64,000 nucleotides of DNA. Source: Deltaproteobacteria bacterium (GTDB lineage Bacteria; Myxococcota_A; UBA9160; JAJDAL01). Each line of letters begins with the position of its first letter. Positions within the stretch are counted from its first letter, which is position 1. Both the position numbers and the translations under genes were made by a program. The DNA lies in NCBI GenBank assembly GCA_029261875.1, contig JAJDAL010000034.1:85066-149065 (forward strand). The letters run 5' to 3'. Under the pieces are notes generated by a model that was not told the DNA's origin, did not search any database, and worked only from the letters and a program-made list of their open reading frames with translations. Positions 19,160-34,906 of the stretch are shown here, one piece after another.

Positions 19160-19651
19160 ATGACAAAGGAAGGACGAGTAGTAGCTGGAACGTGTATACG
19201 CACGATTCTGAGAAACGAGCCGTGGCAAGACTTTGGTTATCCGAGGCGGCCTCGCCACGGCACATTCTTTCAAAGGTTGCGACCCCACTGGAAGGTCGAA
19301 CTTGAAAAGACGTTGCTCCAGGAGATGTTGATCGCACTCACTGCTGCGCACGTACGGGCGGGTGCAGTCTCTGCTGACGAAGTCTCAGAGATTATCGGGA
19401 TATACACATCGCACCCGATGGCAATTCAATCCTTTGGCTATGCGTCGCGAGAAGAAGCAGTGAGACACCTCACTGATTCAATCGCGGAATACCTGCAGGC
19501 TCCGTTAGATGAATGGGGCGGTTTGCTTTGCAGGAGAGTGGCCCCGGAATCGATCCCTAACGAAAAGATCTCCGTTCAGATCTTTGTTGGGTGTGCGGAG
19601 TTCGGATTGAACTTGCGCCAAATGGTCGGCGTAATTGGGCGTGGTACCTAG
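19160..19651 (+). CDS. Hypothetical protein
   Basis: 163-aa ORF with non-low-complexity composition and no family recognised. Lies just left of the XRE regulator. Confidence 0.45.
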   Translation: MTKEGRVVAGTCIRTILRNEPWQDFGYPRRPRHGTFFQRLRPHWKVELEKTLLQEMLIALTAAHVRAGAVSADEVSEIIGIYTSHPMAIQSFGYASREEAVRHLTDSIAEYLQAPLDEWGGLLCRRVAPESIPNEKISVQIFVGCAEFGLNLRQMVGVIGRGT

Positions 19652-19782
19652 TCTCGGAGCTAACCGAGGCCAGATGCGTCCCCCGAAAGTAACGATTCCT
19701 CCGGGCCAGCCCCCCTGCCCTAGCGGTTCTAGCGCCGCGTAACGTGCGTGCGCAGTGGGTTTTCTGTAGCAGTGGGTAACAT

Positions 19783-20316
19783 ATGGAGACGATGTCGAAA
19801 GGTGTCCCTTCAGGTTCTAGTGACTGCCGTAGACCTATTGAGCAATGGGAAAGGAGACCATTGGCCGATGTAGGACAGTTGGTCCGGGAACTGCGATCGA
19901 CATCCGGAATGACTCAGGCGCAGCTAGGTGCGGCCGCAAAACTCTCCCGGGTCCAGGTCTGTCGAATCGAGAAGGGAACGAGACGGACGCGGCGTTCGAC
20001 GCTTGAACGAATTTCCGCTGCGATCAGTGCGAAGCGGCCGTGGCTGGGAACACCCGCCCTTCTAACTCAGCGTCTTGTATCAATGGCAGGAGACGCCCTG
20101 GCGCCTGAGTCGAAGTTTCGAGAGCGAATCGAGCGTCGGCGGCTTCGGAGGATTCGGAAATCTCGACGCCAGGTAGAGAGCCGAACACCGCGGCCCGGCG
20201 AAAAGTCGCAGCACTATCTTCGCCGCTTGGATTCGCTCGGCCGATCACCGGCATCGGATGTGCCCTGCCCCACCTGCGGCCAGTTCAAGGCCCGCCGAAC
20301 GATCTGGGCAGATTGA
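19783..20316 (+). CDS. XRE/Cro-C1-type HTH transcriptional regulator
   Basis: LVRELRSTSGMTQAQLGAAAKLSRVQVCRIEKGTRRTRRSTLERISAAI fits the HTH_3 pattern. Basic C-terminal part with CPTCGQ. Confidence 0.75.
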   Translation: METMSKGVPSGSSDCRRPIEQWERRPLADVGQLVRELRSTSGMTQAQLGAAAKLSRVQVCRIEKGTRRTRRSTLERISAAISAKRPWLGTPALLTQRLVSMAGDALAPESKFRERIERRRLRRIRKSRRQVESRTPRPGEKSQHYLRRLDSLGRSPASDVPCPTCGQFKARRTIWAD

Positions 20317-20436
20317 TGCGCGTCCCGAAAGGTTCAGGTTTTGGGACCAATGGTCCGGTGTCGATTGCCGACCCAAGTACGGGAGCTTACGGACTCCCTT
20401 GTCCCGCGAATCGCGCACCCTTTTGGGACATGCAGT

Positions 20437-21036
20437 CTACGACGCAACGTTTGCCGCCTTTGGCTTGCTGACAACACGCCCCACGCTTGCCTTCGAGACG
20501 CCCACTAGGCCGGCGATCTCGCGGATCGTGCGGCCAGACTCACGCAGTCTCACGATTCGGCGCTGTAGCTCGCCGGTGACAGTCTTGGGGCGTCCTATGC
20601 GCGTTCCATTGCGTCGAGCGGCCCGCATACCCATCGCGATTCGATCACGAATCAGGTCACCTTCAAACTCCGCGATAGCCCCGAGAACGTGAAAGAGAAG
20701 CCTCCCCGTTGGCGTCGATGTATCAATCGCTTGATCAAGAACAATGAGGTCAATTCCGAGTGCCTCTAGCTCTCCCGCCAATGTTGTGAGGTGGCGAACG
20801 CTTCGGGCCAATCGATCGAGCTTCCAGACCAAAATAGCGTCAAAACGTCTCCGTCTGCCGTCCGCAATCATCTGATCGATCGCAGGCCTACGCTGAGCGG
20901 AGCCTGACACTCCATTGTCTATGTAGACCTCGACTACCTCAAGGTTTCGTACGGCGGCATATGACGTTAGTTCATCGATCTGGTTCTCGGCATGCTGCTC
21001 CTTCGTCGAAACACGACCGTACACGGCGACTCGCAT
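20437..21036 (-). CDS. Small serine recombinase (resolvase/invertase family)
   Basis: MRVAVYGRVSTKEQ catalytic Ser context, LVWKLDRLARS, GRLLFHVLGAIAEFE, and the C-terminal HTH GRTIREIAGLVGVSKASV. Confidence 0.9.
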   Translation of the reverse strand: MRVAVYGRVSTKEQHAENQIDELTSYAAVRNLEVVEVYIDNGVSGSAQRRPAIDQMIADGRRRRFDAILVWKLDRLARSVRHLTTLAGELEALGIDLIVLDQAIDTSTPTGRLLFHVLGAIAEFEGDLIRDRIAMGMRAARRNGTRIGRPKTVTGELQRRIVRLRESGRTIREIAGLVGVSKASVGRVVSKPKAANVAS

Positions 21037-21424
21037 GGCAATCCCTCCGGCTCTCAAATCTAGATGCAACGGTCTCGTTTGCATAGGAAACGAATTGAGA
21101 AAACGAAAGTACGGTCTTCCACTTTGGAGTCCCCGCCCTGGAGCCCGAAGCACACGTAGGGTCGCGCTTAACAGCCCCACGCAGAACATGCGGGGAGTTG
21201 AGATCGGACAGAGGCCCCCCACCCCCCTTCTGGGTAATGGGTCCCATCTAGCTGTCACTTGGGGCCCCAGCGGCGCTCCCCCAAAAAAAACTGTTCGCGC
21301 GCGAGGGAGCTCCGACTAAACTCTTGTGGGGCGCGGCTCGGCTCGGCCGGCCGAATGTCGGGATCCTGCAACCGACGTGCCGCGCCCTCCTTTTACGCTG
21401 CAGGACGCGCCAGCAGGAGGCGCA

Positions 21425-22216
21425 ATGGCTGTCACTATCGACACATTGCTCGCTCACCTCGAGCCCTTTGACCTTCTTTCGCGTGACGATGCAACGCAAC
21501 GAATCGTACACATCGACGAACACTTTCGACACGCGGTGACGACTGGGCGACCACTCCGATCTTCTGAGATCACGCGCGACCTTGATCTTGTAGTTCGCCG
21601 AGCGTCTGACCTGCGCGATGCGATGAACAACTTGGACCCCCGGATAGTTGTTACTCTTGGTACCCAGGACGGAAGGCGTGACCTTGGCGACCTGCGGACG
21701 CGTGCCGGAATTGATTCCCTTTGGAAGCGTCTCTCCGCGCCTTGGGAGCAAGACCCTTGGGTCGGGCGCTTGTCAGCACTTATCGATCTCTGCTCGTACA
21801 CCAAAGAGACGTTGGTCCCGGACGCAGGTGGCCCCACTGCCGGCCTCGGGTACTCCAAGTTCTGGCTTGCACAAGAATGTGCGTTGTTGTTTGGAATGGC
21901 TGGGCAACCTTTGATTTCTGGAACAGCCAGCGGTCCACTCCATTCCTTCGCGGAGGACATGCTCGAGTTTTGCGGCGAACCACCCGTAGAACCTCGGGAT
22001 CGGATGCACAAAGCGATCAAGCAGGCTGTTAAGCGTCTTCCCCGAAAGTTCATCCAAGAACAAGCCAACGAACTCCGAAGTGGGAAATCAGGCGGACATC
22101 CGGATGATGCGTTCCGGAACCAACTCTTGGATTTCCATACAGCAATCGAGCGCTCGCGACTCTTCCCAAGCGCGGTGATACCCGAGACTCCCACTGAGTC
22201 AGATTTAGGGAAATAA
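21425..22216 (+). CDS. Hypothetical protein (element cargo)
   Basis: 263-aa ORF from the ATG at 21425. No family recognised. Followed by a hairpin. Confidence 0.55.
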   Translation: MAVTIDTLLAHLEPFDLLSRDDATQRIVHIDEHFRHAVTTGRPLRSSEITRDLDLVVRRASDLRDAMNNLDPRIVVTLGTQDGRRDLGDLRTRAGIDSLWKRLSAPWEQDPWVGRLSALIDLCSYTKETLVPDAGGPTAGLGYSKFWLAQECALLFGMAGQPLISGTASGPLHSFAEDMLEFCGEPPVEPRDRMHKAIKQAVKRLPRKFIQEQANELRSGKSGGHPDDAFRNQLLDFHTAIERSRLFPSAVIPETPTESDLGK

Positions 22217-22242
22217 CCCCCCCCATTTTACTCGGGGTTATT
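22212..22242 (+). terminator. Stem-loop overlapping the stop codon of 21425..22216
   Basis: aataacccc (22212..22220) pairs with ggggttatt (22234..22242) across a 13-nt loop. There is no clear T-run, so its function is uncertain. Confidence 0.3.
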
Positions 22243-22323
22243 CCCCTAGTTCCAATGACGACGGCATGCGACCGTTCGCTCTCGAACGCAGTGGTTGCCA
22301 ATACCACGACGGGGGCACATCGA

Positions 22324-22575
22324 ATGCGAACTGAATCTCTTCCTCACCTCTTAACGCAACAAATTGTTGCTGACCTTCTCCACATCTCCGAACGAACGCT
22401 CGAAAGATGGCGGTGCACTGGCGTTGGGCCGCCATTTGCCAAAGTCGGTCGCCGATGCCTCTACCGGGTCAAAGACCTGGAGGAATGGGTCGAGAAATGC
22501 AGCCACACCTCCAGAGAGAGAGCCCTTGCGCCGATGGGCAAGCCGACGCCTGATGGCCAGTTCGGCGGAGCATGA
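22324..22575 (+). CDS. AlpA/excisionase-like HTH DNA-binding protein
   Basis: LLTQQIVADLLHISERTLERWRCTGVGPPFAKVGRRCLYRVKDLEEWV fits the HTH_17/AlpA pattern. The stop overlaps the next start as ATGA. Confidence 0.7.
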   Translation: MRTESLPHLLTQQIVADLLHISERTLERWRCTGVGPPFAKVGRRCLYRVKDLEEWVEKCSHTSRERALAPMGKPTPDGQFGGA

Positions 22576-25166
22576 GGATGGATGCTCACACTGATACCAG
22601 CACCTTCTCAGTCGAAAGTCACGGACCGATGGCAACAGCGATGCGGGGGACCCTCGAACTCCTCGTCCCGCACGGGTCAGTTAGTGAAATACGCATTCTC
22701 AATACTCGACAGGGAACTGTGTCGGGATACTTCGACGACCTCGACCTCATGGCGGCCGCCGCGGCGCAATGGGACGGAAACGCTACCGGTGTGTTCTTTA
22801 CCCTAAATCCCGTTACGTCAGATCTCCTCGCACGGTCGAGCAACAGGTTAAAGCCGTACTCGAGATTCACGACTAGAGACGCCGAAATTACGGGTCGCGT
22901 ATGGCTCCCTATTGATGTCGATCCAATTCGCCCACGTGGAATCTCCTCGAACACCGCGGAGCACCAAGCCGCCCTTGAGCAAGCGAAGAAGATACGGGAT
23001 TACCTGGCCGAACGGGGATGGCCTGCTCCTATATTCGCGGACTCCGGAAATGGGGGGCACCTTCTCTACAGAATCAAGCAAACCAATGACGCCAGCACCA
23101 CGGACTTGATTAACCGCTGCCTAAACTCAATCGCGTTTCGCTTTTCGGATGACGTTGTATCGATCGACACAGCAGTAGGAAATGCAGCTCGAATTTGGAA
23201 GCTGTATGGAACACTCGCCTGCAAAGGAGACAGCCTCCCCGATCGCCCACACCGTCGGTCGCAGGTCCTTTCTGCCCCAGCGTGCCTCGACGAGGTCAAT
23301 GAAGTGCAACTTGAAGCACTCGCTGCAGAAAGCCCGTCTTCGAAGCTATCAGTCGGAAATGGCATCGATGTGGACCGTTGGCTCGAAGACCGTGGGCTTT
23401 CGGGGGTTTTGAAGGTCCCTTGGCAAGGGGGTTTCAAATACGTCTTTGACGAATGCCCGTGGAACGCCGAACACACGAATCGATCAGCCTATATCGTTCA
23501 ATTTTCATCCGGGGCGATCGCCGCTGGGTGTCATCACAACAGTTGCAGCGACAACGATTGGCATGCGCTGAGAGATCAATTCGAGCCAGGATGGAGAGAG
23601 AGACGAAACAACGCCCAGACCCACACCGATGCGCCAGGTCCGTCGGATGATGGATGGCTCGCTCCCGCTCCCTTGCCTGCGCCCCACCCAGCCGTTCCGA
23701 GACTCTCAGTGGATCTCCTACCGGAGCCTTTTCGAGGATGGGTCGCCGACATAGCCGAGCGGGTCAACGTACCCCTTGAGTTCGTAGCAGCTCCCGCAAT
23801 TGTCGCAGCGGGTTCACTGGTGGGACGAGGGGTAGGTATTCGGCCAAAAAGTTGCGACGACTGGACAGTTGTTCCGAATCTTTGGGGGGGTGTCGTCGGT
23901 CCTCCTGGCGTGATGAAGAGTGCCGCGATAGCGGAAGCGACCCGCCCGCTACGTCTGTTGGCTATCGAGGCCGGAAAACAATTCGAACAGTCCCGTGCAA
24001 AACATGAAAACCTTCGCGCCATCTTGGAAATTAGGCTCAAGGCCGCTCATGAGCAGGGGAAGGCTGCGGCGAAATCAAACGACGAGAAGAAACTGGAGTC
24101 GATCCGCGAGGAGATGCTGACGATCCAGCAGGAGATTGAGCAAACAGAGATAACGGAGCGGCGTTTCCAGACACAAGACGCGACAACCGAGAAAATCGCG
24201 GAACTTCTCCGCAAGAACCCTCGCGGAATTCTGATCAACCGCGACGAACTCGCGGGCTGGCTCCGGACCCTCGACAAACCAGGGCGCGAGGGCGATCGGG
24301 AGTTCTATCTCGAAGCCTGGAATGGAAGCGGGGGATTTACTTACGACCGGATAGGACGCGGCACAATTCATGTCCCTGCCGTCACTCTGAGTGTTCTGGG
24401 CGGCATTCAACCTGGAAAGCTTCGTTCCTACATCAACGCCTCACTCGCAGACGACGCGGGGAATGACGGGCTTCTCCAGCGTGTCCAGCTCCTCGTCTGG
24501 CCCGACGACCTAGGAGAATGGCGCAACGTGGACCGATGGCCCGATCAGCTGGCGAAAAAACGAGCCTTCAGCGTCTACTCGGGACTGTCAGTCGTAGACG
24601 CCGAATTGATGGGGGCAGCCAAGGACCAATGCAGCGATGTGCCAGCCTTTCGATTCTCTCCCGAGGCCCAGGAACTATTTGACGAATGGCGGAGCGAGCT
24701 TGAACTGCGACTCCGCAGCCCCGAAGCGGCAGAAACTCCGGCGTTCACGGCTCACCTAGCCAAGTATCGCTCACTAATGCCGTCACTGGCGCTGATCTTC
24801 TCTTTGATCGAGATGCTGGATCGGAACGATGCAACCACGTGCGTTTCGCTTGAGTCTGCCAAGCTCGCGGCTGGGTGGTGTGAGTTTCTAGAGATTCACG
24901 CAAAGAAGGTATACGCGAAAGAGCTTCAGACGGGTGTTTCCGCAGCGCTCGCGTTGGCCGGGAAAATCAAAGGCGGAGCCGCTTCCCATGGCATGTCTAT
25001 ACGTGACATATCACAGCGAGAATGGTCGGGGCTCACCTCTCCGTCACTCGTTCACGAAGGCGTAGATGTTCTTGAGCGACATGGGTGGCTTCGTCGGACC
25101 ACCGTCCCGACCGGCGGTCGCCCATCTGGGATCATCCACATTCACCCGCAGCTGAGAAAACCATGA
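22572..25166 (+). CDS. Replication protein: AEP-type primase-polymerase N-domain, Zn-binding segment and DUF3987-like P-loop domain
   Basis: AEP motifs PIDVDP (DxD) and SGNGGHLLY (sGxGxH). Zn-binding segment CPWNAEH..CHHNSC. GPPGVMKS, and FYLEAWNGSGGFTYDRIGRGTIHVPAVTLSVLGGIQPGKL typical of DUF3987/YfjI-like proteins. Confidence 0.85.
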   Translation: MRMDAHTDTSTFSVESHGPMATAMRGTLELLVPHGSVSEIRILNTRQGTVSGYFDDLDLMAAAAAQWDGNATGVFFTLNPVTSDLLARSSNRLKPYSRFTTRDAEITGRVWLPIDVDPIRPRGISSNTAEHQAALEQAKKIRDYLAERGWPAPIFADSGNGGHLLYRIKQTNDASTTDLINRCLNSIAFRFSDDVVSIDTAVGNAARIWKLYGTLACKGDSLPDRPHRRSQVLSAPACLDEVNEVQLEALAAESPSSKLSVGNGIDVDRWLEDRGLSGVLKVPWQGGFKYVFDECPWNAEHTNRSAYIVQFSSGAIAAGCHHNSCSDNDWHALRDQFEPGWRERRNNAQTHTDAPGPSDDGWLAPAPLPAPHPAVPRLSVDLLPEPFRGWVADIAERVNVPLEFVAAPAIVAAGSLVGRGVGIRPKSCDDWTVVPNLWGGVVGPPGVMKSAAIAEATRPLRLLAIEAGKQFEQSRAKHENLRAILEIRLKAAHEQGKAAAKSNDEKKLESIREEMLTIQQEIEQTEITERRFQTQDATTEKIAELLRKNPRGILINRDELAGWLRTLDKPGREGDREFYLEAWNGSGGFTYDRIGRGTIHVPAVTLSVLGGIQPGKLRSYINASLADDAGNDGLLQRVQLLVWPDDLGEWRNVDRWPDQLAKKRAFSVYSGLSVVDAELMGAAKDQCSDVPAFRFSPEAQELFDEWRSELELRLRSPEAAETPAFTAHLAKYRSLMPSLALIFSLIEMLDRNDATTCVSLESAKLAAGWCEFLEIHAKKVYAKELQTGVSAALALAGKIKGGAASHGMSIRDISQREWSGLTSPSLVHEGVDVLERHGWLRRTTVPTGGRPSGIIHIHPQLRKP

Positions 25167-25543
25167 TGTCGGAGTTCATTTCTCGCTGGGCGACCTGGCG
25201 AGGTAGTCTCCAAACTACAAACGTTCCAGCGTGGGCACCCGCAAAACCTGCAAAAGAATGTTTTGAGGGTTTTGAGGGGCTCAATTCAGCCTCGGATTTG
25301 CTTACAGCGGCCTCCATCGTCGAAATCCGGCGGGACGTATCAGCTGTTCGTTTCCAGAGCAACGACTTCGACAGCTACTGGGTAGTCCGCGACGAAGATG
25401 CAGCGGCCAAGGTCGCCGCCGAAGGAAATGGCCTCCCGGTGTTTACTTTCGAGGAAGTCGCCAAGCTCCACGGAAAGTCACCGGAAATGCTGCGAGCCGT
25501 GCTCAACACCAAGGCCACGTTCCCGACGGCGAGGGTGCTGTAG
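25163..25543 (+). CDS. Hypothetical protein
   Basis: ATGA overlap with the primase stop. 126 aa. No family recognised. Confidence 0.55.
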   Translation: MMSEFISRWATWRGSLQTTNVPAWAPAKPAKECFEGFEGLNSASDLLTAASIVEIRRDVSAVRFQSNDFDSYWVVRDEDAAAKVAAEGNGLPVFTFEEVAKLHGKSPEMLRAVLNTKATFPTARVL

Positions 25544-25731
25544 TGAACGACCTCCGAGAGGCTCTACGGGCCACGATAGAGGCAGCCGACGACCTTCGCG
25601 CGCGACGCGACGCGTTGCGCACCGCGATCGAAGCGGGTAATACGGACGAGATCGTTCGGTCTGCCCGGCGACTACTGGGGTTGACTTATGGAGAGCCTGC
25701 GAAACGCCATCGCCCTGATCCGAGTCTCTAG
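25543..25731 (+). CDS. Small helical protein preceding and overlapping recombinase 1
   Basis: GTG start in a TAGTG overlap. LREALRATIEAADDLRARRDALRTAIEAGNTDEIVRSARRLLG has a paralog at 33009..33203 in the same position relative to recombinase 2. Confidence 0.45.
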   Translation: MNDLREALRATIEAADDLRARRDALRTAIEAGNTDEIVRSARRLLGLTYGEPAKRHRPDPSL

Positions 25732-27214
25732 CGACGCCCAGGCTGGGCCCGACAGACAGGGCCTCGGCGTGCAGCGCACGACCTGTGAGCAGGTGGCGGC
25801 CACCAACGACCTCAACATCATCGAGTGGGTCGAACTCGAAGGCGTCTCGGGCGCCGCCGTACTCGCAGACAGCCGATTCTCCGAATTGCTCCGGAGGCTT
25901 CAGTCCCCGCGGATCGATGCCGTGATCGTGGCCGCCTTCGACCGACTCTTTCGACGTGGTCGATTCTCGGATTACGCAATCCTCGACGCATTCGCCGAAA
26001 CTGGAACTCGGCTCTTCTCCAGCGATGGAGAGTTAGATCTCGCCGCGGAAAGCGGTGGGTTGCTCGGCGTCATCCGTGGTGAGCTAGCTGGCATGGAGCG
26101 GCGGCGGATCATCGAACGAACTACAGCGGGAAGGCGGCGCAAGCGCCGGATGAAGGGCGTTAGGGCAGAGGGACCCGTAGGCATGCCCCGGGGCGTTCAG
26201 TTCGACTACGACACAGAAAAGTGGAAATACGTGTGGCCCGAGGCCGAGAAGGTGCGCGAGGCGTTCCGACTGTTCCTCGCTGGGGTACACAACCTTCGCG
26301 AGATCCATCGACGCACGGGAATCGGGAGCCACAAGGATGCCTCGGCGTCCGTCGGTCGGGTTCTCCGCCAGCCTCTCTATATGGGGATCTATCGCGTTGA
26401 CCGCACCTGGGAGGGAAAGCGTGCGCATCCATTGCCCCCCGAGGAGATTCAGGAGCACGAAGTACTCAATCCCCCGTTGGTCCCGCGCAATCAGTGGGAG
26501 GAAGTCCAGCGGATCCTCGCGGCCCGCCACGCCAGCCGCCCTCCGCGGCGTGACCCCGAAACGCTCGGGGCGACCTATACCGGAAATTTGACCTGCGCTG
26601 CCTGCGGCAAACGAGTCCTAACGGCGCGCGACTCGCGCGAGTACACGGCATACGCCTGCCCGCGGAAGCGCGACCGCTGTGGCGCCGTGCACGTTTCGAC
26701 GCGTCTCGCGGATCCGGTGCTTGATGCCGAACTCGAACGCATCCTCGGTGATTTCGACACGCTCTCGTTGATCTTGGAAGCCAGCCAGAACGAGGAAGTG
26801 CGGGACGCAAGCCCGAGTGCGCGGGAGATCGGTCGGCGCTTGACTCATGTCGAGAACCGGCGGCAGCGAACGATCGAGTCCTACATCGAGGGTGTGATCA
26901 CCCGGGAGGAGCGCGACAAGCTGATCACCTCCATCTCGAACGAGAAGGCTGGACTCGAAGCCCTGATGTCCGCCGAAGACGAAATCGAGCTACCTGAAGG
27001 CTTCGTGGACGACGTGGTCATGGTCTTCGCCTCGTGGCGAGATCTCTCGCGAGAACGCAAGCGTGAGCTTCTGCGTGCGTACCAAGTTGAGATCGTTGTC
27101 GAGAAACGCGGCGCGCGCAAACGTTCCTGGCTCCATGTCGATCGGATTCGGCTCGGACTATTGCCTGCTCATGTGTGGCTGTACAAGAAGATGAAACGGT
27201 TGGGAATCGAGTGA
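25688..27214 (+). CDS. Large serine recombinase 1
   Basis: IALIRVSSDAQ catalytic Ser context, VAAFDRLFRR and GELAGMERRRIIERTTAGRR. Recombinase domain, Cys pairs CAACGKR..YACPRKRDRCG and a coiled-coil C-part. Confidence 0.92.
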   Translation: MESLRNAIALIRVSSDAQAGPDRQGLGVQRTTCEQVAATNDLNIIEWVELEGVSGAAVLADSRFSELLRRLQSPRIDAVIVAAFDRLFRRGRFSDYAILDAFAETGTRLFSSDGELDLAAESGGLLGVIRGELAGMERRRIIERTTAGRRRKRRMKGVRAEGPVGMPRGVQFDYDTEKWKYVWPEAEKVREAFRLFLAGVHNLREIHRRTGIGSHKDASASVGRVLRQPLYMGIYRVDRTWEGKRAHPLPPEEIQEHEVLNPPLVPRNQWEEVQRILAARHASRPPRRDPETLGATYTGNLTCAACGKRVLTARDSREYTAYACPRKRDRCGAVHVSTRLADPVLDAELERILGDFDTLSLILEASQNEEVRDASPSAREIGRRLTHVENRRQRTIESYIEGVITREERDKLITSISNEKAGLEALMSAEDEIELPEGFVDDVVMVFASWRDLSRERKRELLRAYQVEIVVEKRGARKRSWLHVDRIRLGLLPAHVWLYKKMKRLGIE

Positions 27215-27413
27215 ACTTCTCGGGAGTTGGTGCGGAAAGGTCTTGAATCACCACGGACGACTTGCTGGCAAGGATGCGCTTTCGCTGACGCTCTTTAGCA
27301 AGCCTCCTAGCCCTCGAATCGCTGCCGACGATCTTGTGGACGCGAAGAAGCGTTGGAGCTGAGTCTGGGTTGCGTTCCCCAAGCGACGTCCCGAGGCTTT
27401 ACAATTCAGGCGC

Positions 27414-28265
27414 CTACTCGGGGCAAGTGCTCCACTCCCAGCCGCAGTGACCGCTGTCATCACACACGCAGGCTCCGGGGCCGGAGAAACGGATGCCGTC
27501 TGCACAACTCGTAACGGGCGCACCGGGTGCTGGACCGCAAGGGCCCAGGTTCGAAACCGGTCCAGGACAGGTCAACCATTCCCAGCCACAATCGCCGCTG
27601 TCGGAACAAATGCATTCGCCAGGGCCGGAAACGTTCACGCCATCCGGGCACGTCATAATCGGCGCACCGGGTGCTGGCCCGCAAGGGCCAAAATTCGATT
27701 GCGGCCACACGATGTGATTGGCAAAGCCGTGGATGAGCGACTGGATCTTGCGCAGTCGCACATTGTCGGTGCTCGACAGGAAGGAAAAGGTATTGGCACG
27801 CTGGATGTAGCGGGATCGCGCGGACGCGCGCGAGTGCTTCGGTCGGAAAAATGTCATCGTCACGACCCGTGAATCCGTGTTCCAGTTGCGCGGGTTGACG
27901 AGGTCGCCGCCGAAGCGAAGCGCCCGGGCCCGAACAAGGGCTTCCTGAAGCGCCTGGACGTCCTGGCGCGAGACTTGCCCAATGCGGGTCGATGACGTCC
28001 CCGAGCCTTCCGTAAGGTAATCCGGCCCGGACAGGACCAAGCTCGGCGCCTCGGATTCGGTTACGAGGCCGTCGCTGTACACGGTCAGGATCGTCTGGGC
28101 GGTGGCGGGGTAGTTGTTCCCACTCATGTGGACGATCAGGGCGGGTGTTCGAAGAGTGGCGGCCCGTCGAGAATCGTCAGGCGTTTCCTCCGCACTGGCC
28201 GGGCCAGCGAAGCAAACGAACGCCAGGGTAGTTGTCAGACTCAAAATGGCGGAAATTCTATGCAC
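27414..28265 (-). CDS. Secreted protein with two tandem 6-Cys repeats
   Basis: Leader MHRISAILSLTTTLAFVCFAGPASA. The C-terminal units are NFGPCGPAPGAPIMTCPDGVNVSGPGECICSDSGDCGWEWLTCPGP and NLGPCGPAPGAPVTSCADGIRFSGPGACVCDDSGHCGWEWSTCPE. Confidence 0.75.
   Translation of the reverse strand: MHRISAILSLTTTLAFVCFAGPASAEETPDDSRRAATLRTPALIVHMSGNNYPATAQTILTVYSDGLVTESEAPSLVLSGPDYLTEGSGTSSTRIGQVSRQDVQALQEALVRARALRFGGDLVNPRNWNTDSRVVTMTFFRPKHSRASARSRYIQRANTFSFLSSTDNVRLRKIQSLIHGFANHIVWPQSNFGPCGPAPGAPIMTCPDGVNVSGPGECICSDSGDCGWEWLTCPGPVSNLGPCGPAPGAPVTSCADGIRFSGPGACVCDDSGHCGWEWSTCPE
27417..27695 (-). repeat. Two tandem ~45-48-aa Cys-rich coding repeats
   Basis: Read directly from the translation (aa 191-283). 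Confidence 0.85.
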
Positions 28266-28599
28266 TGTTCTTTCTCCAACGGCGGGTTAGTCTGCATCGA
28301 TCGGCCCAAATTTTTGCCGCGGACCCAACGGCCCCCCGGAAGGTGTGTTCAGCAGACAAGGTTCCGCAAACACATCGCTTACAATAGAAGTATCGAAAAC
28401 GGGTCGAATCAGTTGCGATCGTTCTACAACGATTTGACTGGCACGAATCACGGTTCAGGCGAAAAGTCACGGTGCGAGCAGATCGTTGGCTGACTACTTG
28501 CCGACGTTTGAACCTTTCCCCAGGGGCTCCCAAATCGAAGGGCTTTGCTCGTACTCGGCTTGATTGCGCTGCCGTGGCCGACCGCCTCCGACTTTCCCG

Positions 28600-29352
28600 C
28601 TAGGGCGTCGGTTCCTGAAACTGCGGAAAGCCCGGGTCCTCGGGCGGAAGATGGGTGGCACCCCCCAGAGATGCCTCATCGACGCCGCAGCGGGCGCTCG
28701 AGCAAATCCCCCAACACTGCAAACGGTTCGTCCCCAAAGAGACGCCGCATTGGGTGTTGTTGCCGGCGCGAACCAGGAAAGCGCCCCCAGCCTCGGCTAA
28801 GGAGCTCCCCGCGAGCACATCGCCATATCCCCAGCACACGGCGGAGTCGTCCATGCGAATCACACAGGCGCGAGTCGACGTCGATTCGAGGGACTTCACC
28901 GGCTCTCCCTCGAGGCCGTGCACGGTGACGGGAACGAAGGCCTCGCTCCCGCTCGACGGCACGGAGCTGTTTCCCAAGAGGCCCGAGGAATTGCTACCGC
29001 GACACCAGACGGTTCCATCGAGCATCTGGGCACACATGTGACTCTGGGCCGAATGGATGTCGGCAATTCCATCGGCCACCCAGGTGGCAAAGACGTCGCT
29101 GCTGTAATTACCGTTCACGTCGAGGGTGATGTTTCGATCGCGCCCTCCCCAGCACCACAACGAGTCGTCACTGCGAATCGCACAAATTGTCGCGTTTCCA
29201 AAGCCCGTATCGATTTCGACGACATCCGACAGGAACTCGTTCTCCGAAACCCGGATCTGCGTGGGCACCGGCGAGCAAGGAACGCACGGCCCCGTGACAC
29301 ATTCCACAATCCCCATCGTAAAACAAACGGTCGCGTGCGGACCCGGCGGCAT
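28600..29352 (-). CDS. RCC1-like repeat protein, probably 5'-truncated
   Basis: About 4 blades of the RCC1/BLIP-II pattern (ICAIRSDDSLWCWGG, MCAQMLDGTVWCRGSNSSGLLGN, ACVIRMDDSAVCWGYG, QCGVSLGTNRLQCWG). No signal peptide. The 5' 185 nt overlap the 3' end of the HTTM gene out of frame. Confidence 0.55.
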   Translation of the reverse strand: MPPGPHATVCFTMGIVECVTGPCVPCSPVPTQIRVSENEFLSDVVEIDTGFGNATICAIRSDDSLWCWGGRDRNITLDVNGNYSSDVFATWVADGIADIHSAQSHMCAQMLDGTVWCRGSNSSGLLGNSSVPSSGSEAFVPVTVHGLEGEPVKSLESTSTRACVIRMDDSAVCWGYGDVLAGSSLAEAGGAFLVRAGNNTQCGVSLGTNRLQCWGICSSARCGVDEASLGGATHLPPEDPGFPQFQEPTP

Positions 29353-30202
29353 TGGGAAGCGCTCCTCGGAGCCACCCGGGATTGAAGGTAAAGAGGTGGA
29401 GGATCACCATTCCAAAACTCAGGTCCGCAAAGTCGATCAACGCCAGGAGTCCCAGATGCATCGAAAGCAACGCGAGCCAAAGCCAAGGGCGTGCCCGACG
29501 GAAACACGCCAACGGCGCAAAACTGAGCTCCATGGCGAGAGCGGACCAAGTCATTCCCTGTAACAGCGGCCCTGGCAATGCGAGTAGCCATTCGCGCAAG
29601 AAACTCGGACGCGCCAAGGGATTTTCGAGGACATACCGGATGGCGCTTCCATCGACCCACGACGGACTTACGAGCTTCGTGTAACCGCTATAGGAGTATC
29701 CGAGGGCCATGAGGACCCAAGCACCGACGAAGAGAACTTGCGGAAGTTCCCAACCGCCTCCCGGGTCCGTCCGTCCCCGGGCCTGCCAGGCGCCCCATGG
29801 CGAGCGAGGGATGCAGGCGTGCGCCAGCAGAATCCAGCCCACGTAGGGGAGCGAAGGATTCTGAATCAGCGGGTTTCGATTGAACAAGCACGCCAGCACG
29901 AACCATAGACCGACGGCGGCAACGCGATCCCGGTATCCCGCAGCCAGGCAAAGGCTGAGCCCCGCGCCCGCGCTCAGAAAGGCCGCAACCATGAGTGGAG
30001 AATCCACGTAGGCGAGTGGATTCGGAAATACGCCGAACAACGGACTGCGGGCCGCATCCGCGAGCATGCCTTGATTCGAGAACACCTCGGTGCCATAGGG
30101 GAGGAGCTGCAAGAAGTGGACGAGGAGGTAGCCCCCAAGCACCCAGCGGAAGAGACTGTACTGGCCTCCGGTCCAACCGTTCGTTTCCCGTCGTGATCCC
30201 AT
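29168..30202 (-). CDS. HTTM (vitamin-K-dependent gamma-carboxylase-like) membrane protein fused to the start of a DCC-type thiol-disulfide oxidoreductase domain
   Basis: YSLFRWVLGGYLLVHFLQLLP plus multiple TM helices is typical of HTTM. The C-terminal LFYDGDCGMCHGAVRSLL matches the DCC/DUF393 CxxC motif. The remaining ~40 aa do not resemble DCC. The ATG overlaps the upstream stop by 1 nt. Confidence 0.75.
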   Translation of the reverse strand: MGSRRETNGWTGGQYSLFRWVLGGYLLVHFLQLLPYGTEVFSNQGMLADAARSPLFGVFPNPLAYVDSPLMVAAFLSAGAGLSLCLAAGYRDRVAAVGLWFVLACLFNRNPLIQNPSLPYVGWILLAHACIPRSPWGAWQARGRTDPGGGWELPQVLFVGAWVLMALGYSYSGYTKLVSPSWVDGSAIRYVLENPLARPSFLREWLLALPGPLLQGMTWSALAMELSFAPLACFRRARPWLWLALLSMHLGLLALIDFADLSFGMVILHLFTFNPGWLRGALPNAAGSARDRLFYDGDCGMCHGAVRSLLAGAHADPGFGERVPVGCRRNRYGLWKRDNLCDSQ

Positions 30203-30687
30203 CAGGGGCACCCTACTTCGAGAACCAGGGGTAGATCCGGATGGGTCCCCGCGCGCGGCGCGAGGCGAACACGCAGATTTCTTCGGTCTTCGGCTGGATC
30301 CAGCCCGAGTTCCCTCAGCAGCGGGGCCTCCCCGCACAGGGCGTAGCGGGACACGGATTCGAGCATGGGCTGGGTGGCGGGATCGCTGGCGAGCAGCGGA
30401 GCGTAAGCGAGTACCGCGCCATAGGTGTTCCGACGGTTATAGGGCCCCCGAACGCCCGCGTACATCTCGGAATCCAAAAGTTTGCTTTGCTCTCGACCCT
30501 GGGCGTCCGTCCATTCGAGAAAGAACCGCGAGGAATACGTCTCGAGTCCTCGTGAGGCCGAGAACACCTTGGGCGCCGGCGAAGCGCCCGTCGCTGCACC
30601 GAGCCCGCGGAGCGCGGGCACGCCGAGCACGTCCCCCGCCATTTGCAACAAGCCCAGCCCCAGCAGTGCGAACCCCAAAACTCTCAT
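30202..30687 (-). CDS. Hypothetical exported/membrane protein (161 aa)
   Basis: MRVLGFALLGLGLLQMAGDVLG leader. ATGA overlap with the hydroxylase stop, and its own stop overlaps the HTTM start. The longer listed ORF (to 31107) overlaps the hydroxylase and was trimmed. Confidence 0.55.
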   Translation of the reverse strand: MRVLGFALLGLGLLQMAGDVLGVPALRGLGAATGASPAPKVFSASRGLETYSSRFFLEWTDAQGREQSKLLDSEMYAGVRGPYNRRNTYGAVLAYAPLLASDPATQPMLESVSRYALCGEAPLLRELGLDPAEDRRNLRVRLAPRAGTHPDLPLVLEVGCP

Positions 30688-31400
30688 GCCCGGGTTTCCC
30701 GACCGAGCAAAAGCGCCCCAAGCTGCAGCTCCGCATCCTCCGCGAACCCACAACGCCCATCGAATTTTCGAGGATTGTGAAAAGTCCCGAACAAAATGTC
30801 CCACAGTGGAAGATCGCTGAAGTTGTGCGTGTGCGAGCCTTGTTCGTGATGAACGCAATGGCTCTCCGGGCGCTGGAAGATAAATCCAAGCCAATACGGA
30901 GTCTTCACATTCCAGTGATAGACGAGTTCGGCGACGCCGGTAATCCCCACGCTGATACTCGCCGCGAGGGGGCTCACACCGACCAGCGTGAAGAGGATCG
31001 CGCTGGAAAGTAGGCCGTTCAACGCGATCTCCAGCGGGTGTTTGTAGAAGCTCGTCACAATCTCGAGTCGCTGAGGGCTGTGGTGCACTTGGTGGACGAA
31101 ACGCCAAAGCAGCGGCACCTCATGCCGCCATCGATGCCACCAGTAATAGATGAAGGTGATCGCCAAATAGCCGACGAGAACCTGTGCGTTCAAGCCAAGT
31201 TCGGAACCGTTCCAAAGCCGATGCGTATCGAGAAACGGATCCCACAACTTCCCGACGACGAATACGATTGCCACCTGAAAGCCATTCAGCGCAATCACGC
31301 GCGCCCACCAAGTGGGCACGATCGGCCATTCTCGTGCGGCGCGAAGACGCTCGACGCAAAACATAAGAACCGCAAAAGCGAATACGACCGCAGCAACCAT
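30684..31400 (-). CDS. Fatty acid hydroxylase / sterol desaturase family membrane protein
   Basis: His boxes HRWRH, HQVHH and HCVHH with multiple TM segments. ATG at 31400; a TTG alternative lies at 31469. Confidence 0.85.
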   Translation of the reverse strand: MVAAVVFAFAVLMFCVERLRAAREWPIVPTWWARVIALNGFQVAIVFVVGKLWDPFLDTHRLWNGSELGLNAQVLVGYLAITFIYYWWHRWRHEVPLLWRFVHQVHHSPQRLEIVTSFYKHPLEIALNGLLSSAILFTLVGVSPLAASISVGITGVAELVYHWNVKTPYWLGFIFQRPESHCVHHEQGSHTHNFSDLPLWDILFGTFHNPRKFDGRCGFAEDAELQLGALLLGRETRA

Positions 31401-31651
31401 GGATTCTCCTTCGGACAAGTTCCGTGGAACGGTTAAATGCAGGACCGGTGCCAATCGGACACGATCCAAAAAAGACCTGCACCATCAGACACTTAACGGA
31501 TCAAGCAGGAGCAGCCGCCCACACCCCGCGCCAACATTCTCTGCACGCGACCCTCCAAAGAATGCCCATCCAAAGAGGACTGCAGTCACCGCAGTCGAGG
31601 CGGAATCGCCTAACCTTCCAACCCCCGAGAGCGACGAGGAGGACGCGTCCT

Positions 31652-32095
31652 ATGGCTGATTTTCGAGAGATTCCGTGGATCGCAGAGCACATCGCGCTCT
31701 ACCACACCGACCCCGCCAAAGCGCACATGTGGGATTCCACGCCCCTCGGTGGCCCGGGACTTCTTCCGACGCTTCTCCTCACCACAACGGGTCGCAAGTC
31801 CGGAGAACCGCGCGCACTGCCCCTGATCTACGGTGAAGCGGGCGACAGCTACGTCGTCATTGCATCCAAAGGGGGACTCCCGAATCACCCGATCTGGTAC
31901 CTCAACCTTCAGTCAAAGCCCGAGTGCGAACTGAGGGTCGGCGAGAAAGCAGTCTCCGCCCGAAGTCGCTTGGCCGAGGGAGAAGAGCGAACCCGCCTTT
32001 GGGAAGAAATGGTGAAGATCTATCCGCCCTACACGGAGTATCAAGAGCGAGCCGGCGACCGCACCATTCCCGTGGTGGTTCTCGATCCCGTTTAG
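31652..32095 (+). CDS. Deazaflavin (F420)-dependent nitroreductase-family protein (DUF385)
   Basis: LLLTTTGRKSGEPRALPLIYGEAGDSYVVIASKGGLPNHPIWYLNLQSKPECELRVG..GEERTRLWEEMVKIYPPYTEYQERAGDRTIPVVVLDP fits the family pattern closely. Confidence 0.88.
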   Translation: MADFREIPWIAEHIALYHTDPAKAHMWDSTPLGGPGLLPTLLLTTTGRKSGEPRALPLIYGEAGDSYVVIASKGGLPNHPIWYLNLQSKPECELRVGEKAVSARSRLAEGEERTRLWEEMVKIYPPYTEYQERAGDRTIPVVVLDPV

Positions 32096-32145
32096 TCCAC
32101 TCCCGAACACAACCCCCATGGCTCGAAAGGAGCGCAATGCCCCGC

Positions 32146-32193
32146 CTAAGACAAGTGCCCAAAGACGAGGCCCACCCGACGGCGCAAAGGCCA
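32146..32193 (+). pseudogene. 5' stub (16 codons) of a carboxymuconolactone-decarboxylase-family gene
   Basis: MPRLRQVPKDEAHPTA is identical at protein level to the first 16 aa of 50510..51151, with synonymous nucleotide differences. Similarity stops abruptly after codon 16. Confidence 0.6.
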
Positions 32194-32498
32194 ACAACGC
32201 GCCCATCGTTTCCTTTTTTCCCGATTTGTCGTGCCGACTGCATTCCACAGGTAGGCGAGCCATTCTGGCCACACTCGCCGTTGGTATTCAAGTGGACAGG
32301 TGTTTACGTATGGGGCGCGACGAGGCAAAGAGTCACACGCCACGCGGACTCCCGATTCTTCGACCCACAGGTGGTCCGAAACCCCCGGCGCTCTTAGTCC
32401 CAAGAACCCAGGGAAGTCCGCGAAAAAGAGCGAGGCTTCCGACCGTCATTTCGCGCTCCAAGACCGAACGTTTCTGGGGCATCGAGAGGAGACAGGAT

Positions 32499-32978
32499 AT
32501 GGCGTATGAGAAACGTGAGGGCGCGTCAGATGACACGGCTCAGACTAGGCTGATAAGCAGCCGTAGATCAGGGCACGCCGATCATCTGCGCGATTTTCGG
32601 TGGCAGAAGGGTCAGAGTGGGAATCCGGCCGGCCGACCTAAACGACCGAGCTTTGAAGCGCTGGTGCAGAGTGTGCTCGACCAGAAGCTTCCCGAAAGTG
32701 ACGAGTCCAACCGGGAAACGCTCGCCCGTCTCTTCGTCGGCGAACTGCTGGACGGGAATCGGACGCTTATGCGCGAGTTCTTATTGCGTGTGTGGCCAAT
32801 CGTAAACAAACATAACATCGAGACCACCACCGAAACGGCTGATCGGCCCGACTTGTCAAAACTCAGCAACGAAGAGTTGGTGACTCTAAAGCGGATCTTG
32901 ATGAAAGCGCAGGGATTGCAGCAGCCCGAGCACGAGATCTCAATTGGACAAGGGCAGACCGATGCCCACACGACCTAG
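32499..32978 (+). CDS. DUF5681-like protein
   Basis: FRWQKGQSGNPAGRPKRPS matches the signature of DUF5681, a family seen in phage and mobile elements. Confidence 0.7.
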   Translation: MAYEKREGASDDTAQTRLISSRRSGHADHLRDFRWQKGQSGNPAGRPKRPSFEALVQSVLDQKLPESDESNRETLARLFVGELLDGNRTLMREFLLRVWPIVNKHNIETTTETADRPDLSKLSNEELVTLKRILMKAQGLQQPEHEISIGQGQTDAHTT

Positions 32979-33008
32979 GACTATCAGAAAACTGACGACG
33001 CGGTGAAT

Positions 33009-33203
33009 ATGAACGACGGAATACGCGACGCCTTGCGGAGAACGACTCGAATCGCCGAAGATCGGCGCCGGAAGCTGCGTGAAGCCCTTGAATCCGGTAA
33101 CACCGAAGAGCTTTCAAACGCCGTACGGGCGTTTCTTGGAGATGAGCTTGCCGAACGCGATCGCCCTCATCCGAGTCTCGAGCGAAGCACAAGCCGGGTC
33201 TGA
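33009..33203 (+). CDS. Small helical protein preceding and overlapping recombinase 2
   Basis: IRDALRRTTRIAEDRRRKLREALESGNTEELSNAVRAFLG is a paralog of 25543..25731. Confidence 0.45.
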   Translation: MNDGIRDALRRTTRIAEDRRRKLREALESGNTEELSNAVRAFLGDELAERDRPHPSLERSTSRV

Positions 33204-34668
33204 CCGCGAAGGGCTCCCCGTCCAGCGCGAAGCTTGCGAGCGTATCGCACTCGCCCATGGCCTTACGATCGTCGAGTGGGTCGAACTCGACGGTGTGTCG
33301 GGCGCGGCGGTCCTCGCCGATCCGCGGTTCGCCGATCTCCTCGCCCGATTGCAGTCTCCGAACGTCGAGGCCGTCATCGTCGCGGCCTTTGACCGCTTGT
33401 TTCGCCGGGGCCGCTTCGCAGATTACGCGATCCTCGACGCCTTCGCCGAGACCGAAACGCCACTCTATTCAGCCGACGGCGAACTCGATCTTACTGCGGA
33501 GACAGGCGGGCTGCTCGGTGTGCTCCGCGGCGAACTCGCTGGGATGGAACGCCGGGCCATCGCCCGCCGAACAACGGCCGGGCGTCGCCGCAAACGCCGG
33601 GAGAAGGGTGTGCGTGCCGAGGGCCCGGTTGGAATGCCGAGGGGCGTACGTTTCAACTACGATGCCGAATGCTGGGAGTACGTCTGGCCAGAGGCCGAGA
33701 AAGTACGCGAGTGCTTTCGACTCTTTCTCGGCGGTGTCCGAAATTTCCGCGAGATCCACCGGCGGACGGGGATCGGGAAGGTGTCAGACGCGTCAGCTTC
33801 GATTGGGAGACTTCTCCGCCAACCCCTCTATGCTGGGATTTATCGAGTCGATCGGACCTGGGAGGACAAGAAACCTCACCCCCTCCCGGAGTCGGAGGTC
33901 CAAGAACACGCTGTCCTTGATCCGCCCCTCGTTTCACGCGCCGACTTTGACGAAGTCCAGCGGATTCTCGCATCGCGTCGAGCGATGCGTCCCCAGCGCC
34001 GAGACCCGGAACAACTCGACGCCACGTACACAGGTCACGTGGGCTGCGCAAGCTGCAATCGGCCAGTACTCGTCCAGCGGGATTCGCGTAAGTACCTCAG
34101 CTATGCGTGCACACGCCGATCTGCCCACGACCGCTGCGGCTGGAGCGTATCGACCCGATTGGCAGACCCAAGGCTTGACGCCCAATTGGGCCTTCTCCTT
34201 GGAGACGCCGACACACTAGCGATGGTCCTTGAGGCAAGCGTTACGGAGCAGGCTCGCACGGCCAGCCTCTCAGGGCACGAGATCGCGCGGCGACTGACCG
34301 ACCTGGGAAATCGACGTGAGCGCCTGATCGACCTCTACACGCAGGGTGATATCGAGCGGCGTGATTTCGAGAAACGATCGGTCACAATATCCGACGAGCG
34401 GACCGCCCTAGAACTCATGATTGGCCGCGGAGAGCAGATCGAGCTGCCGGACGCACTAATCGAAGCACTGGTAGAAGTTTTCGGCTCCTGGGCCACTCTC
34501 GCGCGTCACCAGAAGCGCGAGCTCCTCGCCGCTTATCGAGTTGAGATTGTAGTCACCAAGCGTGGCCCTGCGCGTGGTTCCTGGCTCCGCGTCGATCGGG
34601 TACGGCTCAACGTGTTGCCCCCCGATGTGTGGCTGTACAAGAAGATGAAGCGTTTGGGGATCGAATGA
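33142..34668 (+). CDS. Large serine recombinase 2 (paralog of 25688..27214)
   Basis: IALIRVSSEAQ, VAAFDRLFRR and GELAGMERRAIARRTTAGRR, with Cys pairs CASCNR..YACTRRSAHDRCG. The C-terminus VWLYKKMKRLGIE is identical to that of recombinase 1. Confidence 0.92.
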   Translation: MSLPNAIALIRVSSEAQAGSDREGLPVQREACERIALAHGLTIVEWVELDGVSGAAVLADPRFADLLARLQSPNVEAVIVAAFDRLFRRGRFADYAILDAFAETETPLYSADGELDLTAETGGLLGVLRGELAGMERRAIARRTTAGRRRKRREKGVRAEGPVGMPRGVRFNYDAECWEYVWPEAEKVRECFRLFLGGVRNFREIHRRTGIGKVSDASASIGRLLRQPLYAGIYRVDRTWEDKKPHPLPESEVQEHAVLDPPLVSRADFDEVQRILASRRAMRPQRRDPEQLDATYTGHVGCASCNRPVLVQRDSRKYLSYACTRRSAHDRCGWSVSTRLADPRLDAQLGLLLGDADTLAMVLEASVTEQARTASLSGHEIARRLTDLGNRRERLIDLYTQGDIERRDFEKRSVTISDERTALELMIGRGEQIELPDALIEALVEVFGSWATLARHQKRELLAAYRVEIVVTKRGPARGSWLRVDRVRLNVLPPDVWLYKKMKRLGIE

Positions 34669-34906
34669 CGACGGGCGCCCGCCAGAGTACGGATCCGCCG
34701 ACGAGCGGCGCAGGTCGAGTGGTTCGTCGACCACCGTTCACAATTTCTCTCCGCATCATCACCAGTCTTTCCGAATCGTTCCCGATCGAGTTTCGGGACC
34801 TTGCGGAGTGAGCGACAAGAATTAGCAACAACGGCCGAACCGAGGCAGAATGATTCATCGCTGGCTGGCGGAGAATGACCGCGGCGCCAGTGGAGAATCG
34901 CCCCCC

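Follow-up and report, generated by a model that had tools for sequence, protein, structure and literature searches.

A putative integrative replicon pairing a primase-helicase with a large serine recombinase in an uncultured bacterial lineage

The gene group described here lies in a 64-kb stretch of DNA (contig C34:85066-149065, hereafter the window) from a 5.68-Mb, 60-contig, 94%-complete assembly with a guanine-plus-cytosine (GC) content of ~63.5%, whose host lineage is uncultured and poorly known. The segment at 21.3-27.3 kb of the window, possibly extending left to 19.2 kb or further, is probably an integrated, self-replicating mobile island that has no transfer apparatus of its own. The open reading frames (ORFs) of the window were compared with the family libraries Pfam, PHROGs, NCBIfam and PADLOC, and the features found are collected in Table 1. 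A plus-strand chain runs from ORF21425 through an AlpA-like helix-turn-helix (HTH) gene and a replicase gene to the large serine recombinase LSR1, and its core genes are all intact and translationally coupled, with ATGA overlaps at 22572-22575 and 25163-25166, a TAGTG overlap at 25541-25545 and a 44-nt overlap between the small helical ORF and the LSR1 start. These overlaps, already reported in the initial annotation, proved exact when the sequence was read again. To the left of the chain, an XRE regulator gene and a small resolvase gene are both real, as that annotation had stated, but the divergent orientation given to them there does not hold: the XRE gene (plus) and the resolvase gene (minus) converge tail to tail, and it is from the ORF21425-to-recombinase chain that the resolvase diverges.

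Table 1. Features of the element and of the second recombinase cassette to its right, in window coordinates
Feature	Position	Strand	Description
ORF19160	19160..19651	+	163 aa, orphan; membership of the element uncertain (left boundary undefined)
XRE/cI-type HTH regulator	19783..20316	+	177 aa; Pfam HTH_31 E 1.4e-8, HTH_3 E 5.9e-6
Small serine recombinase (resolvase/invertase type)	20437..21036	-	199 aa; Pfam Resolvase E 1.4e-45
Divergent intergenic region	21037..21424	.	Presumed control region, between resolvase and ORF21425
ORF21425	21425..22216	+	263 aa, opens the plus-strand chain; near-orphan, predicted to be all helical
AlpA/excisionase-like HTH_17 protein	22255..22575	+	106 aa; Pfam HTH_17 E 2.8e-12
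Replicase	22572..25166	+	864 aa; Pfam DUF3987 E 8.6e-76
ORF25163	25163..25543	+	126 aa, orphan; ATGA coupling to the replicase
62-aa helical ORF	25543..25731	+	Conserved partner of the recombinase clade
LSR1, large serine recombinase (integrase)	25688..27214	+	508 aa, intact; Pfam Resolvase and Recombinase
Expected attR zone	27215..27413	.	Right of LSR1, predicted
Gene stub, 5' end	32137..32184	+	Initial 16 codons agree with the beginning of the 213-aa gene at 50510
DUF5681 protein	32499..32978	+	159 aa, first gene of the LSR2 cassette; Pfam E 3.2e-10
Small helical ORF paralogue	33009..33203	+	64 aa; overlaps the LSR2 start by 62 nt
LSR2, second large serine recombinase	33142..34668	+	508 aa, intact, 68% identical to LSR1

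The replicase is the largest gene of the chain, and its product reads as a protein with four parts. Pfam recognises in it DUF3987 (residues 400-782) and a weak MarR_2 winged-helix match at residues 807-850 only; no Pfam model for archaeo-eukaryotic primases (AEP) matches it, and a PDB sequence search with the N-terminus found nothing. The label of a primase-DUF3987 gene in the initial annotation was therefore visible to Pfam in its DUF3987 half only, whereas the primase half was seen by structure prediction and fold search alone. The AlphaFold model of the N-terminus reached a predicted local distance difference test score (pLDDT) of 91.5, and its 32 best fold matches in the PDB were all AEP primases or PrimPols, among them the LigD polymerase domain, Prim-PolC, CAPP, PriS and Pri1 (best E 1.3e-4, with modest template-modelling (TM) scores of 0.3-0.5). 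In an alignment of 30 sequences, D115 and D117 are invariant, H163 in the motif SGNGGH is kept in at least 90% of the sequences, and a zinc set is formed by C295/H301/C320/H322/C325. The catalytic fold, the acidic DxD and the sGxGxH-type motif that mark the AEP superfamily are thus all present in the N-terminus. Because of this fold and alignment evidence, and because a DUF3987 domain has been shown to be a 5'-3' helicase in a PriCT-DUF3987 protein that acts alongside an AEP within a mobile element (PMC11724360), the 864-residue protein reads as a predicted AEP primase-polymerase (residues ~20-260), a zinc-binding domain (~280-340), the DUF3987 helicase and a winged-helix-like C-terminal end. 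Residues 1-360 (window 22572-23651) have more than 3,000 homologues at ~50% identity, whose fusion partners comprise at least six unrelated modules of helicase or ATPase type (DUF3987, AAA_25, DUF5906/D5_N/Pox_D5, DnaB_C, VirE and DUF927); judged by these fusions, this part looks like a very conserved and freely swapped primase module, for which Pfam may lack coverage. It was also seen that most of the listed homologues of residues 1-360 carry only Pfam families taken as helicase or ATPase domains.

Relatives of the helicase half (33-53% identity) were found in six phyla, the Acidobacteria, Bdellovibrionota, Myxococcota, Actinomycetota, Chloroflexia and Deinococcota, mostly in elements of 4-6 kb that hold XRE, (HTH_17), replicase, tyrosine integrase and tRNA. 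In 13 of the 18 loci, a gene from a single BLAST cluster is found no more than 7 kb from the replicase relative; this cluster is called tyrosine integrase on the basis of four members, all of which match Pfam Phage_integrase. A tRNA or transfer-messenger RNA (tmRNA) gene follows 50-1200 nt beyond the integrase-cluster gene in 7 of the 18, a divergent XRE gene stands just upstream of the replicase relative in eight, and a serine recombinase is near it in only one. The proposal that the element is a serine-recombinase variant of a type that usually has a tyrosine integrase is borne out by these loci. In terms of gene neighbourhoods, the tyrosine integrase of the relatives is replaced by LSR1 in the window, and the integrase swap is real.

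LSR1 matches phrog_95, integrase (E 4.8e-57), and has the parts of a large serine recombinase: PF00239, PF07508, an RVSS catalytic motif and a four-cysteine zinc ribbon (C303, C306, C324 and C331), beyond which extends a long C-terminal region with a presumed coiled coil; its homologues also carry PF13408. Homologues at 50-74% identity are the last gene of several other kinds of module. They follow an AEP-TOTE and AAA_25 replicase in locus L034, a PrimPol, D5_N and DUF5906 replicase with a type I restriction-modification (R-M) system in L053 and an HTH_17-containing operon in L051; they also occur in mini-cassettes of a few small ORFs (L033 and L054) and in prophage-like contigs (L035 and L052), while distant members (30-46% identity) lie in predicted viral contigs of 20-65 kb. 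Because the helicase half pairs elsewhere with tyrosine integrases at tRNA genes, and the recombinase clade with phage-like genomes and no fewer than two further types of replicase, these gene orders show that replication and integration modules are exchanged independently. A side observation concerns L033 (8150-8190) and L034 (5385-5425), where an in-frame TAG stands at the same codon of the conserved recombinase C-terminal tail; the tail reads ...WLYK*MKRLGIE there and WLYKKMKRLGIE in other homologues, and coding-like conserved sequence continues beyond the stop. This recurrent TAG may be a truncation, an assembly artefact or a read-through codon.

The small helical ORF that overlaps the start of LSR1 is a constant companion of this recombinase clade. 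A paralogue precedes LSR2, and homologues lie directly upstream of the recombinase start or overlap it in all eight of the other non-viral loci examined (L033, L034, L035, L051-L054 and G036), with the consensus ALRxT..A..RxRREALRxAV..GD..EVVRCARxLLGME. A hidden Markov model (HMM) of the family matches the same position in the viral contigs L059-L061, L063 and L064 (E 1e-11 to 4e-5) and gives three weaker matches besides these five. A programmed frameshift that would fuse the small ORF with the recombinase was considered and rejected, as the overlap ranges from 11 to 62 nt and is replaced by a gap of ~300 nt in L035; the small ORF is therefore a separate protein and not a frameshift extension. 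From its position we infer a cofactor of the recombinase clade, most plausibly a directionality factor. Whether this ORF of ~60 residues is the dedicated, co-inherited directionality factor of the whole clade, across mini-cassettes, replicative islands and temperate phages, is a more tentative proposal, to which we give rather low confidence. If it were true, position alone would suffice to predict the excision factor throughout a clade of serine integrases, and the two intact recombinase/small-ORF pairs, which lie 7 kb from each other, would be cassettes of a single chromosomal hotspot that can be switched independently. For large serine integrases, directionality factors are difficult to predict and share no common fold (PMC11795197); a rule based on position, valid for one clade, would be testable and of use for integrase toolkits. 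The pairing is the most useful lead of this analysis, and its wider conservation is new here.

The HTH_17 protein matches phrog_66, 'excisionase and transcriptional regulator' (E 2.7e-9), and TIGR01764 ('excise') below its cut-off; an AlpA-like HTH gene is thus present as claimed, but the match is to HTH_17 and not to the Phage_AlpA family. The XRE gene product also matches PHROG transcriptional regulator and repressor families. The small resolvase has a C-terminal HTH_7 match (E 4.4e-6) and matches phrog_125, DNA invertase (E 1.7e-55); its true start is the ATG at 21036, behind GGAGGG, and the ATG of ORF21425 is preceded 6 nt upstream by AGGAGG. No sigma-70-like consensus was found in the intergenic region between these two starts, and scans of the element for promoters, terminators and tandem repeats were uninformative. 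No capsid, terminase or tail family matched in the element, in agreement with the initial annotation.

Composition and distribution point to acquisition from outside. The element has 58.6% GC against a genome mean of 63.5 +/- 1.6%, which places it within the lowest 1.4% of the 8-kb windows of the genome. The replicase is present in 3 of the 193 genomes of the order, a distribution that excludes a chromosomal housekeeping family, the alternative named at the outset as fatal to the proposal; of 40 other genomes, 2 hold LSR1-like genes (E below 1e-30). Domains, composition and distribution together bear out the earlier proposal of an integrative element with a core of AlpA, primase/replicase and integrase, and the locus is supported, as far as sequence comparison reaches, as a horizontally acquired integrative element whose core consists of an AlpA-like HTH protein, a primase-helicase and an integrase.

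Three ORFs of the region (ORF19160, ORF21425 and ORF25163) had been listed as without a recognisable family, and indeed nothing matched them in any of the four libraries. All three show the coding-type pattern GC1>GC2<GC3 (0.57/0.45/0.57 in ORF19160 and 0.65/0.46/0.57 in ORF21425, where the antisense ORF has a non-coding pattern). ORF19160 has no homologue among 400 other genomes of the phylum, ORF25163 has none in a search of 5.8 billion proteins, and for ORF21425 a set of 1.84 billion representatives yielded only three homologues, all of them weak (30-33% identity, E 2e-6 to 8e-4); a single-sequence AlphaFold2 model of ORF21425 was unusable for assigning a function (pLDDT 39). The suggestion that these ORFs are cargo candidates fared less well: none matched a PADLOC defence family, and ORF21425 and ORF25163 lie inside the coupled core chain, a position that does not look like a cargo slot. 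A cargo role is a guess, and anti-phage cargo is so far without support.

The extent initially given for the element was incomplete in one respect, as it left out the second recombinase, 68% identical to the first, with its own small ORF at 33009-34668. LSR2 has RVSS and four zinc-ribbon cysteines, and its cassette resembles the mini-cassettes of L033 and L054 (a few small ORFs, the small helical ORF and the recombinase). Abutting the cassette on its left, the gene stub agrees with the gene at 50510 in 16 of 16 residues, after which the similarity stops, and the remainder of the stub gene is nowhere in the genome; the breakpoint is therefore placed at ~32185, which gives a cassette of ~2.5 kb (together with the stub, 32137-34700). 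Host-type genes (a fatty-acid hydroxylase, an HTTM-like, an RCC1-like and an F420H2-dependent reductase gene) lie between LSR1 and LSR2, so that these are separate insertions ~5 kb apart and not one unit. Because a related replicase on another contig is likewise followed by a DUF5681 gene, the LSR2 cassette may be the stump of a sibling element, and by the same analogy of gene order DUF5681 seems an accessory gene in replicons of this type. On the contig in question (P0075), the order is tyrosine integrase, HTH_17, a 931-residue DUF3987 replicase and the DUF5681 gene, with a partial serine recombinase 2 kb upstream.

In seven related loci the genes of the element end with the recombinase, and in five of them host-like, unrelated genes begin within ~10-110 nt; attR of the element is for this reason expected directly right of LSR1, at 27215-27413. 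Within this zone, a 13-nt sequence, TTCGCTGACGCTC (27281-27293), is matched exactly downstream of the L035 recombinase (L035:11536-11548). The two copies stand 67 nt and ~36 nt past recombinase genes that are 54% identical, and ~0.001 such matches are expected per comparison. No inverted partner of TTCGCTGACGCTC turned up at a candidate left end. The sequence may belong to a shared attachment-site arm. Immediately to the right of the presumed attR zone lies a minus-strand ORF (27414-28265) whose protein has no family match; inside it, at 27421-27698, is a 134-nt tandem duplication with copies 71% identical and 144 nt apart. No tRNA gene is present in the 64-kb window.

The left side is less clearly bounded. 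The element forms part of a 47-kb tract of 55-61% GC (C34:72000-119700, window ~-13000 to 34700; genome 63.5% GC), whose left part holds two trypsin-like proteases of ~860 residues, one of them after ankyrin repeats, and an ankyrin-repeat protein, whose middle holds secreted fibre-like proteins and whose right end holds the two serine-recombinase cassettes. This tract may be an insertion hotspot or a single large island. The 19 kb upstream of the element encode secreted fibre, lectin, nuclease and peptidoglycan (PG)-binding proteins; a prophage reading of this part was rejected, since its genes are of secreted type and structural phage families are missing from it.

Several results weigh against reading the segment as an integrated, self-replicating island and are set out together here. 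Attachment sites were sought by local alignment of both recombinase downstream regions, as inverted or direct repeats and as motifs in nine 3' flanks, and the outcome was at chance level; an example is an inverted repeat of 11 nt with one mismatch, for which ~0.7 are expected by chance. The low-GC tract runs ~32 kb further left, through the secreted-protein cluster. Neither iterons nor an origin could be seen in the element, no empty site, circular junction or second copy was found, the DNA of the element being shared with no other part of the genome, and a codon-masked pattern of the right flank found nothing among metagenome contigs. The search for an empty site led to orthologues of the MlaA-hydrolase gene in two same-order genomes, with no synteny upstream of them. 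The genome is the sole member of its family among those compared, and it has no relative closer than the order level. Because there is neither a close relative nor synteny with the same-order genomes, the term 'inserted' rests on composition and distribution. The element itself may measure ~6 kb (21.3-27.3), ~8 kb, or be the mobility end of an island of at least 40 kb.

From the gene set we infer the following course of integration, excision, replication and transfer for the integrated self-replicating island. Two modules, each found separately elsewhere, would have been joined in one element. In the integration module, made up of the 62-residue ORF and LSR1, the recombinase would insert the circular form by attP x attB recombination and would thereby have come to lie at the right end of the inserted element. 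Excision by LSR1 should need a directionality factor, for which the small ORF is the best candidate; the AlpA-like HTH protein may be a second one, or may act as the switch of the operon. In the replication module, the AlpA-like HTH protein and the AEP/zinc/DUF3987/winged-helix replicase would copy the excised circle, while the XRE regulator would keep the element silent. The small resolvase may resolve multimers or may belong to a neighbouring insertion. Spread by a helper phage is plausible, because the gene set is the core of the smallest known phage satellites, which are called phage-inducible chromosomal minimalist islands (PICMI).

This last point raises the question of how far the element deserves the name 'satellite/PICI-like' that it first received. 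In a true satellite of the PICMI type or of the phage-inducible chromosomal island (PICI) type, a helper phage would induce the AlpA-like gene, LSR1 and the small ORF would excise the element, and replication and packaging in helper capsids would follow. The gene content fits: the PICMI core markers are co-oriented (integrase PF00239/PF07508, AlpA PF12728 and primase PF13148), a small gene overlaps the integrase as iolg does (PMC10803314), the core of ~6 kb encodes orphan proteins and no structural genes, as in satellites, and satellites with serine recombinases exist (PMC6002521, PMC9618062). However, no packaging or capsid-redirecting gene, cos or pac signal, or helper phage was found. Among the genes there is no terS and none for capsid size or packaging interference; no cos- or pac-like DNA is shared with the rest of the genome; HK97 capsid, TerL_ATPase and Terminase_6N were not found in the 94%-complete assembly; and single-sequence patterns found no replicase relatives in IMG/VR. 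Moreover, the same gene set fits non-satellite integrative replicons (PMC5862659). A true satellite is possible on this evidence, although we hold it to be rather unlikely.

The finding could also be the right-hand mobility module of a recombinase-integrated island of ~40-47 kb, with the secreted fibre-like and ankyrin-protease cluster as its cargo. The tract of 55-60% GC is continuous from contig ~72 kb to the recombinases (window ~-13000 to 27000-34700), the recombinase stands at its extreme right, as in the cargo-carrying L053 with its type I R-M system, and the sequence from 18.6 to 19.8 kb showed no boundary signal. Against this, the relatives of the replicase module are elements of 4-6 kb, a similar GC content can come from separate acquisitions at a hotspot, and the other recombinase cassette, at a distance of 5 kb, speaks for repeated insertions, so that such a large island seems unlikely. 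A decayed prophage of which the lysogeny and replication end was left over after deletion of the structural genes is quite improbable. Same-clade recombinases (43-46% identity) with the small ORF do occur in predicted viral contigs of 31-40 kb, the clade is also found in prophage-like contigs with DnaB, AAA_24 or a lysin, and an XRE repressor is present; yet neither side holds remnants of structural genes, the core operon is compact, overlap-coupled and intact throughout, and the replicase relatives form minimal elements that are complete, with an integrase and a tRNA as their bounds. The safer statement is that the locus is an integrative self-replicating island without transfer genes of its own.

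Among known systems, the PICMI of Vibrionaceae come close to this island. Their markers are an integrase (PF00589/PF00239/PF07508), AlpA (PF05930/PF12728), a primase (PF13148/PF19263) and a mandatory fis site (PMC10803314). The integrase, AlpA and primase core is found in the window within 5 kb on one strand, with PF00239 and PF07508, PF12728 and PF13148. Like PICMI, the element has a minimal core of ~6 kb, a small gene overlapping the integrase gene, a few orphan genes and no capsid or packaging genes; in PICMI, the overlapping gene iolg is needed for excision (PMC10803314). On the other hand, the element is not flanked by a small protein of Fis type, and HTH_8 was matched only inside a sigma-54 activator ~33 kb upstream. 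Unlike PICMI, the element has a large serine recombinase, the integrase is last in the gene order, the host is an uncultured non-Vibrio bacterium, the location is not at fis, the replicase has an AEP domain from a family outside Pfam, and the element is known from its genes alone. The wider PICI gene set of integrase, AlpA/Stl-type regulator and Pri-Rep module is present, while flanking attachment sites were not found, and none of the packaging-hijack genes of PICI (terS, ppi, rpp, cpm and the cf-PICI capsid genes) was detected by Pfam and PHROGs among the ORFs at 19-35 kb.

The same domain order is found in integrated elements of the PrimPol-PV1 type, whose replicases also run from AEP through PriCT or zinc and a P-loop ATPase, including the DUF3987 type, to a winged helix (PMC5862659). 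Those elements are small and highly variable and are bounded by sites of tyrosine or serine recombinases, which were defined in 25 of 31 cases (PMC5862659); in the present element, by contrast, such sites were not found, and the AEP assignment is at superfamily level. One replicase homologue bears the NCBI name 'YfjI family protein'. In the cryptic prophage CP4-57 and P4-like elements of E. coli, AlpA stands beside YfjI (DUF3987), and integration is by a tyrosine integrase at tRNA or tmRNA genes. The P4-like hallmarks psu, delta, sid and a D5_N/DUF5906 alpha-type primase were not detected by PHROGs or Pfam, and no cos site was found. Unlike P4-like elements, the element has a DUF3987 and not a D5_N/DUF5906 helicase, and its integrase is a serine and not a tyrosine recombinase.

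A large serine recombinase as integrase, together with a replication gene of its own, is shared with two kinds of phage satellite, the PICI-like elements of Vibrio cholerae (PLE; PMC6002521) and the marine module 3 of the virion-encapsidated integrative mobile elements (VEIMEs; PMC9618062). PLE measure ~18 kb, have a RepA_N initiator and receive the directionality factor PexA from the helper phage (PMC6002521); no RepA_N match was given by Pfam in the present element, and its host is unrelated to V. cholerae. VEIMEs were recovered from virus particles (PMC9618062), unlike the present element, which is known from genes alone. The staphylococcal cassette chromosome (SCC, including SCCmec) likewise combines a large serine recombinase with a primase-helicase replication operon and has no transfer genes. 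SCC elements use Ccr recombinases, form tandem or composite arrays, carry the MCM-like helicase Cch and target rlmH (PMC7581432). The recombinase of the window scores 33.7 bits with CcrB and 17.9 bits with CcrC against NCBIfam cut-offs of 900, and in contrast to SCC the helicase is DUF3987 and not Cch, and no rlmH target was seen. The novelty implied by the term serine-recombinase variant is weak in the light of these comparisons, as satellites and islands with serine recombinases have been published (PMC6002521, PMC9618062, PMC7581432, PMC5862659), and serine and tyrosine integrases are already interchangeable in both SatelliteFinder and the PICMI model (PMC10085698, PMC10803314). Taken as a whole, the element is no new kind of system; it extends the design of the minimal integrative replicon, or satellite-like island, to a poorly known uncultured lineage.

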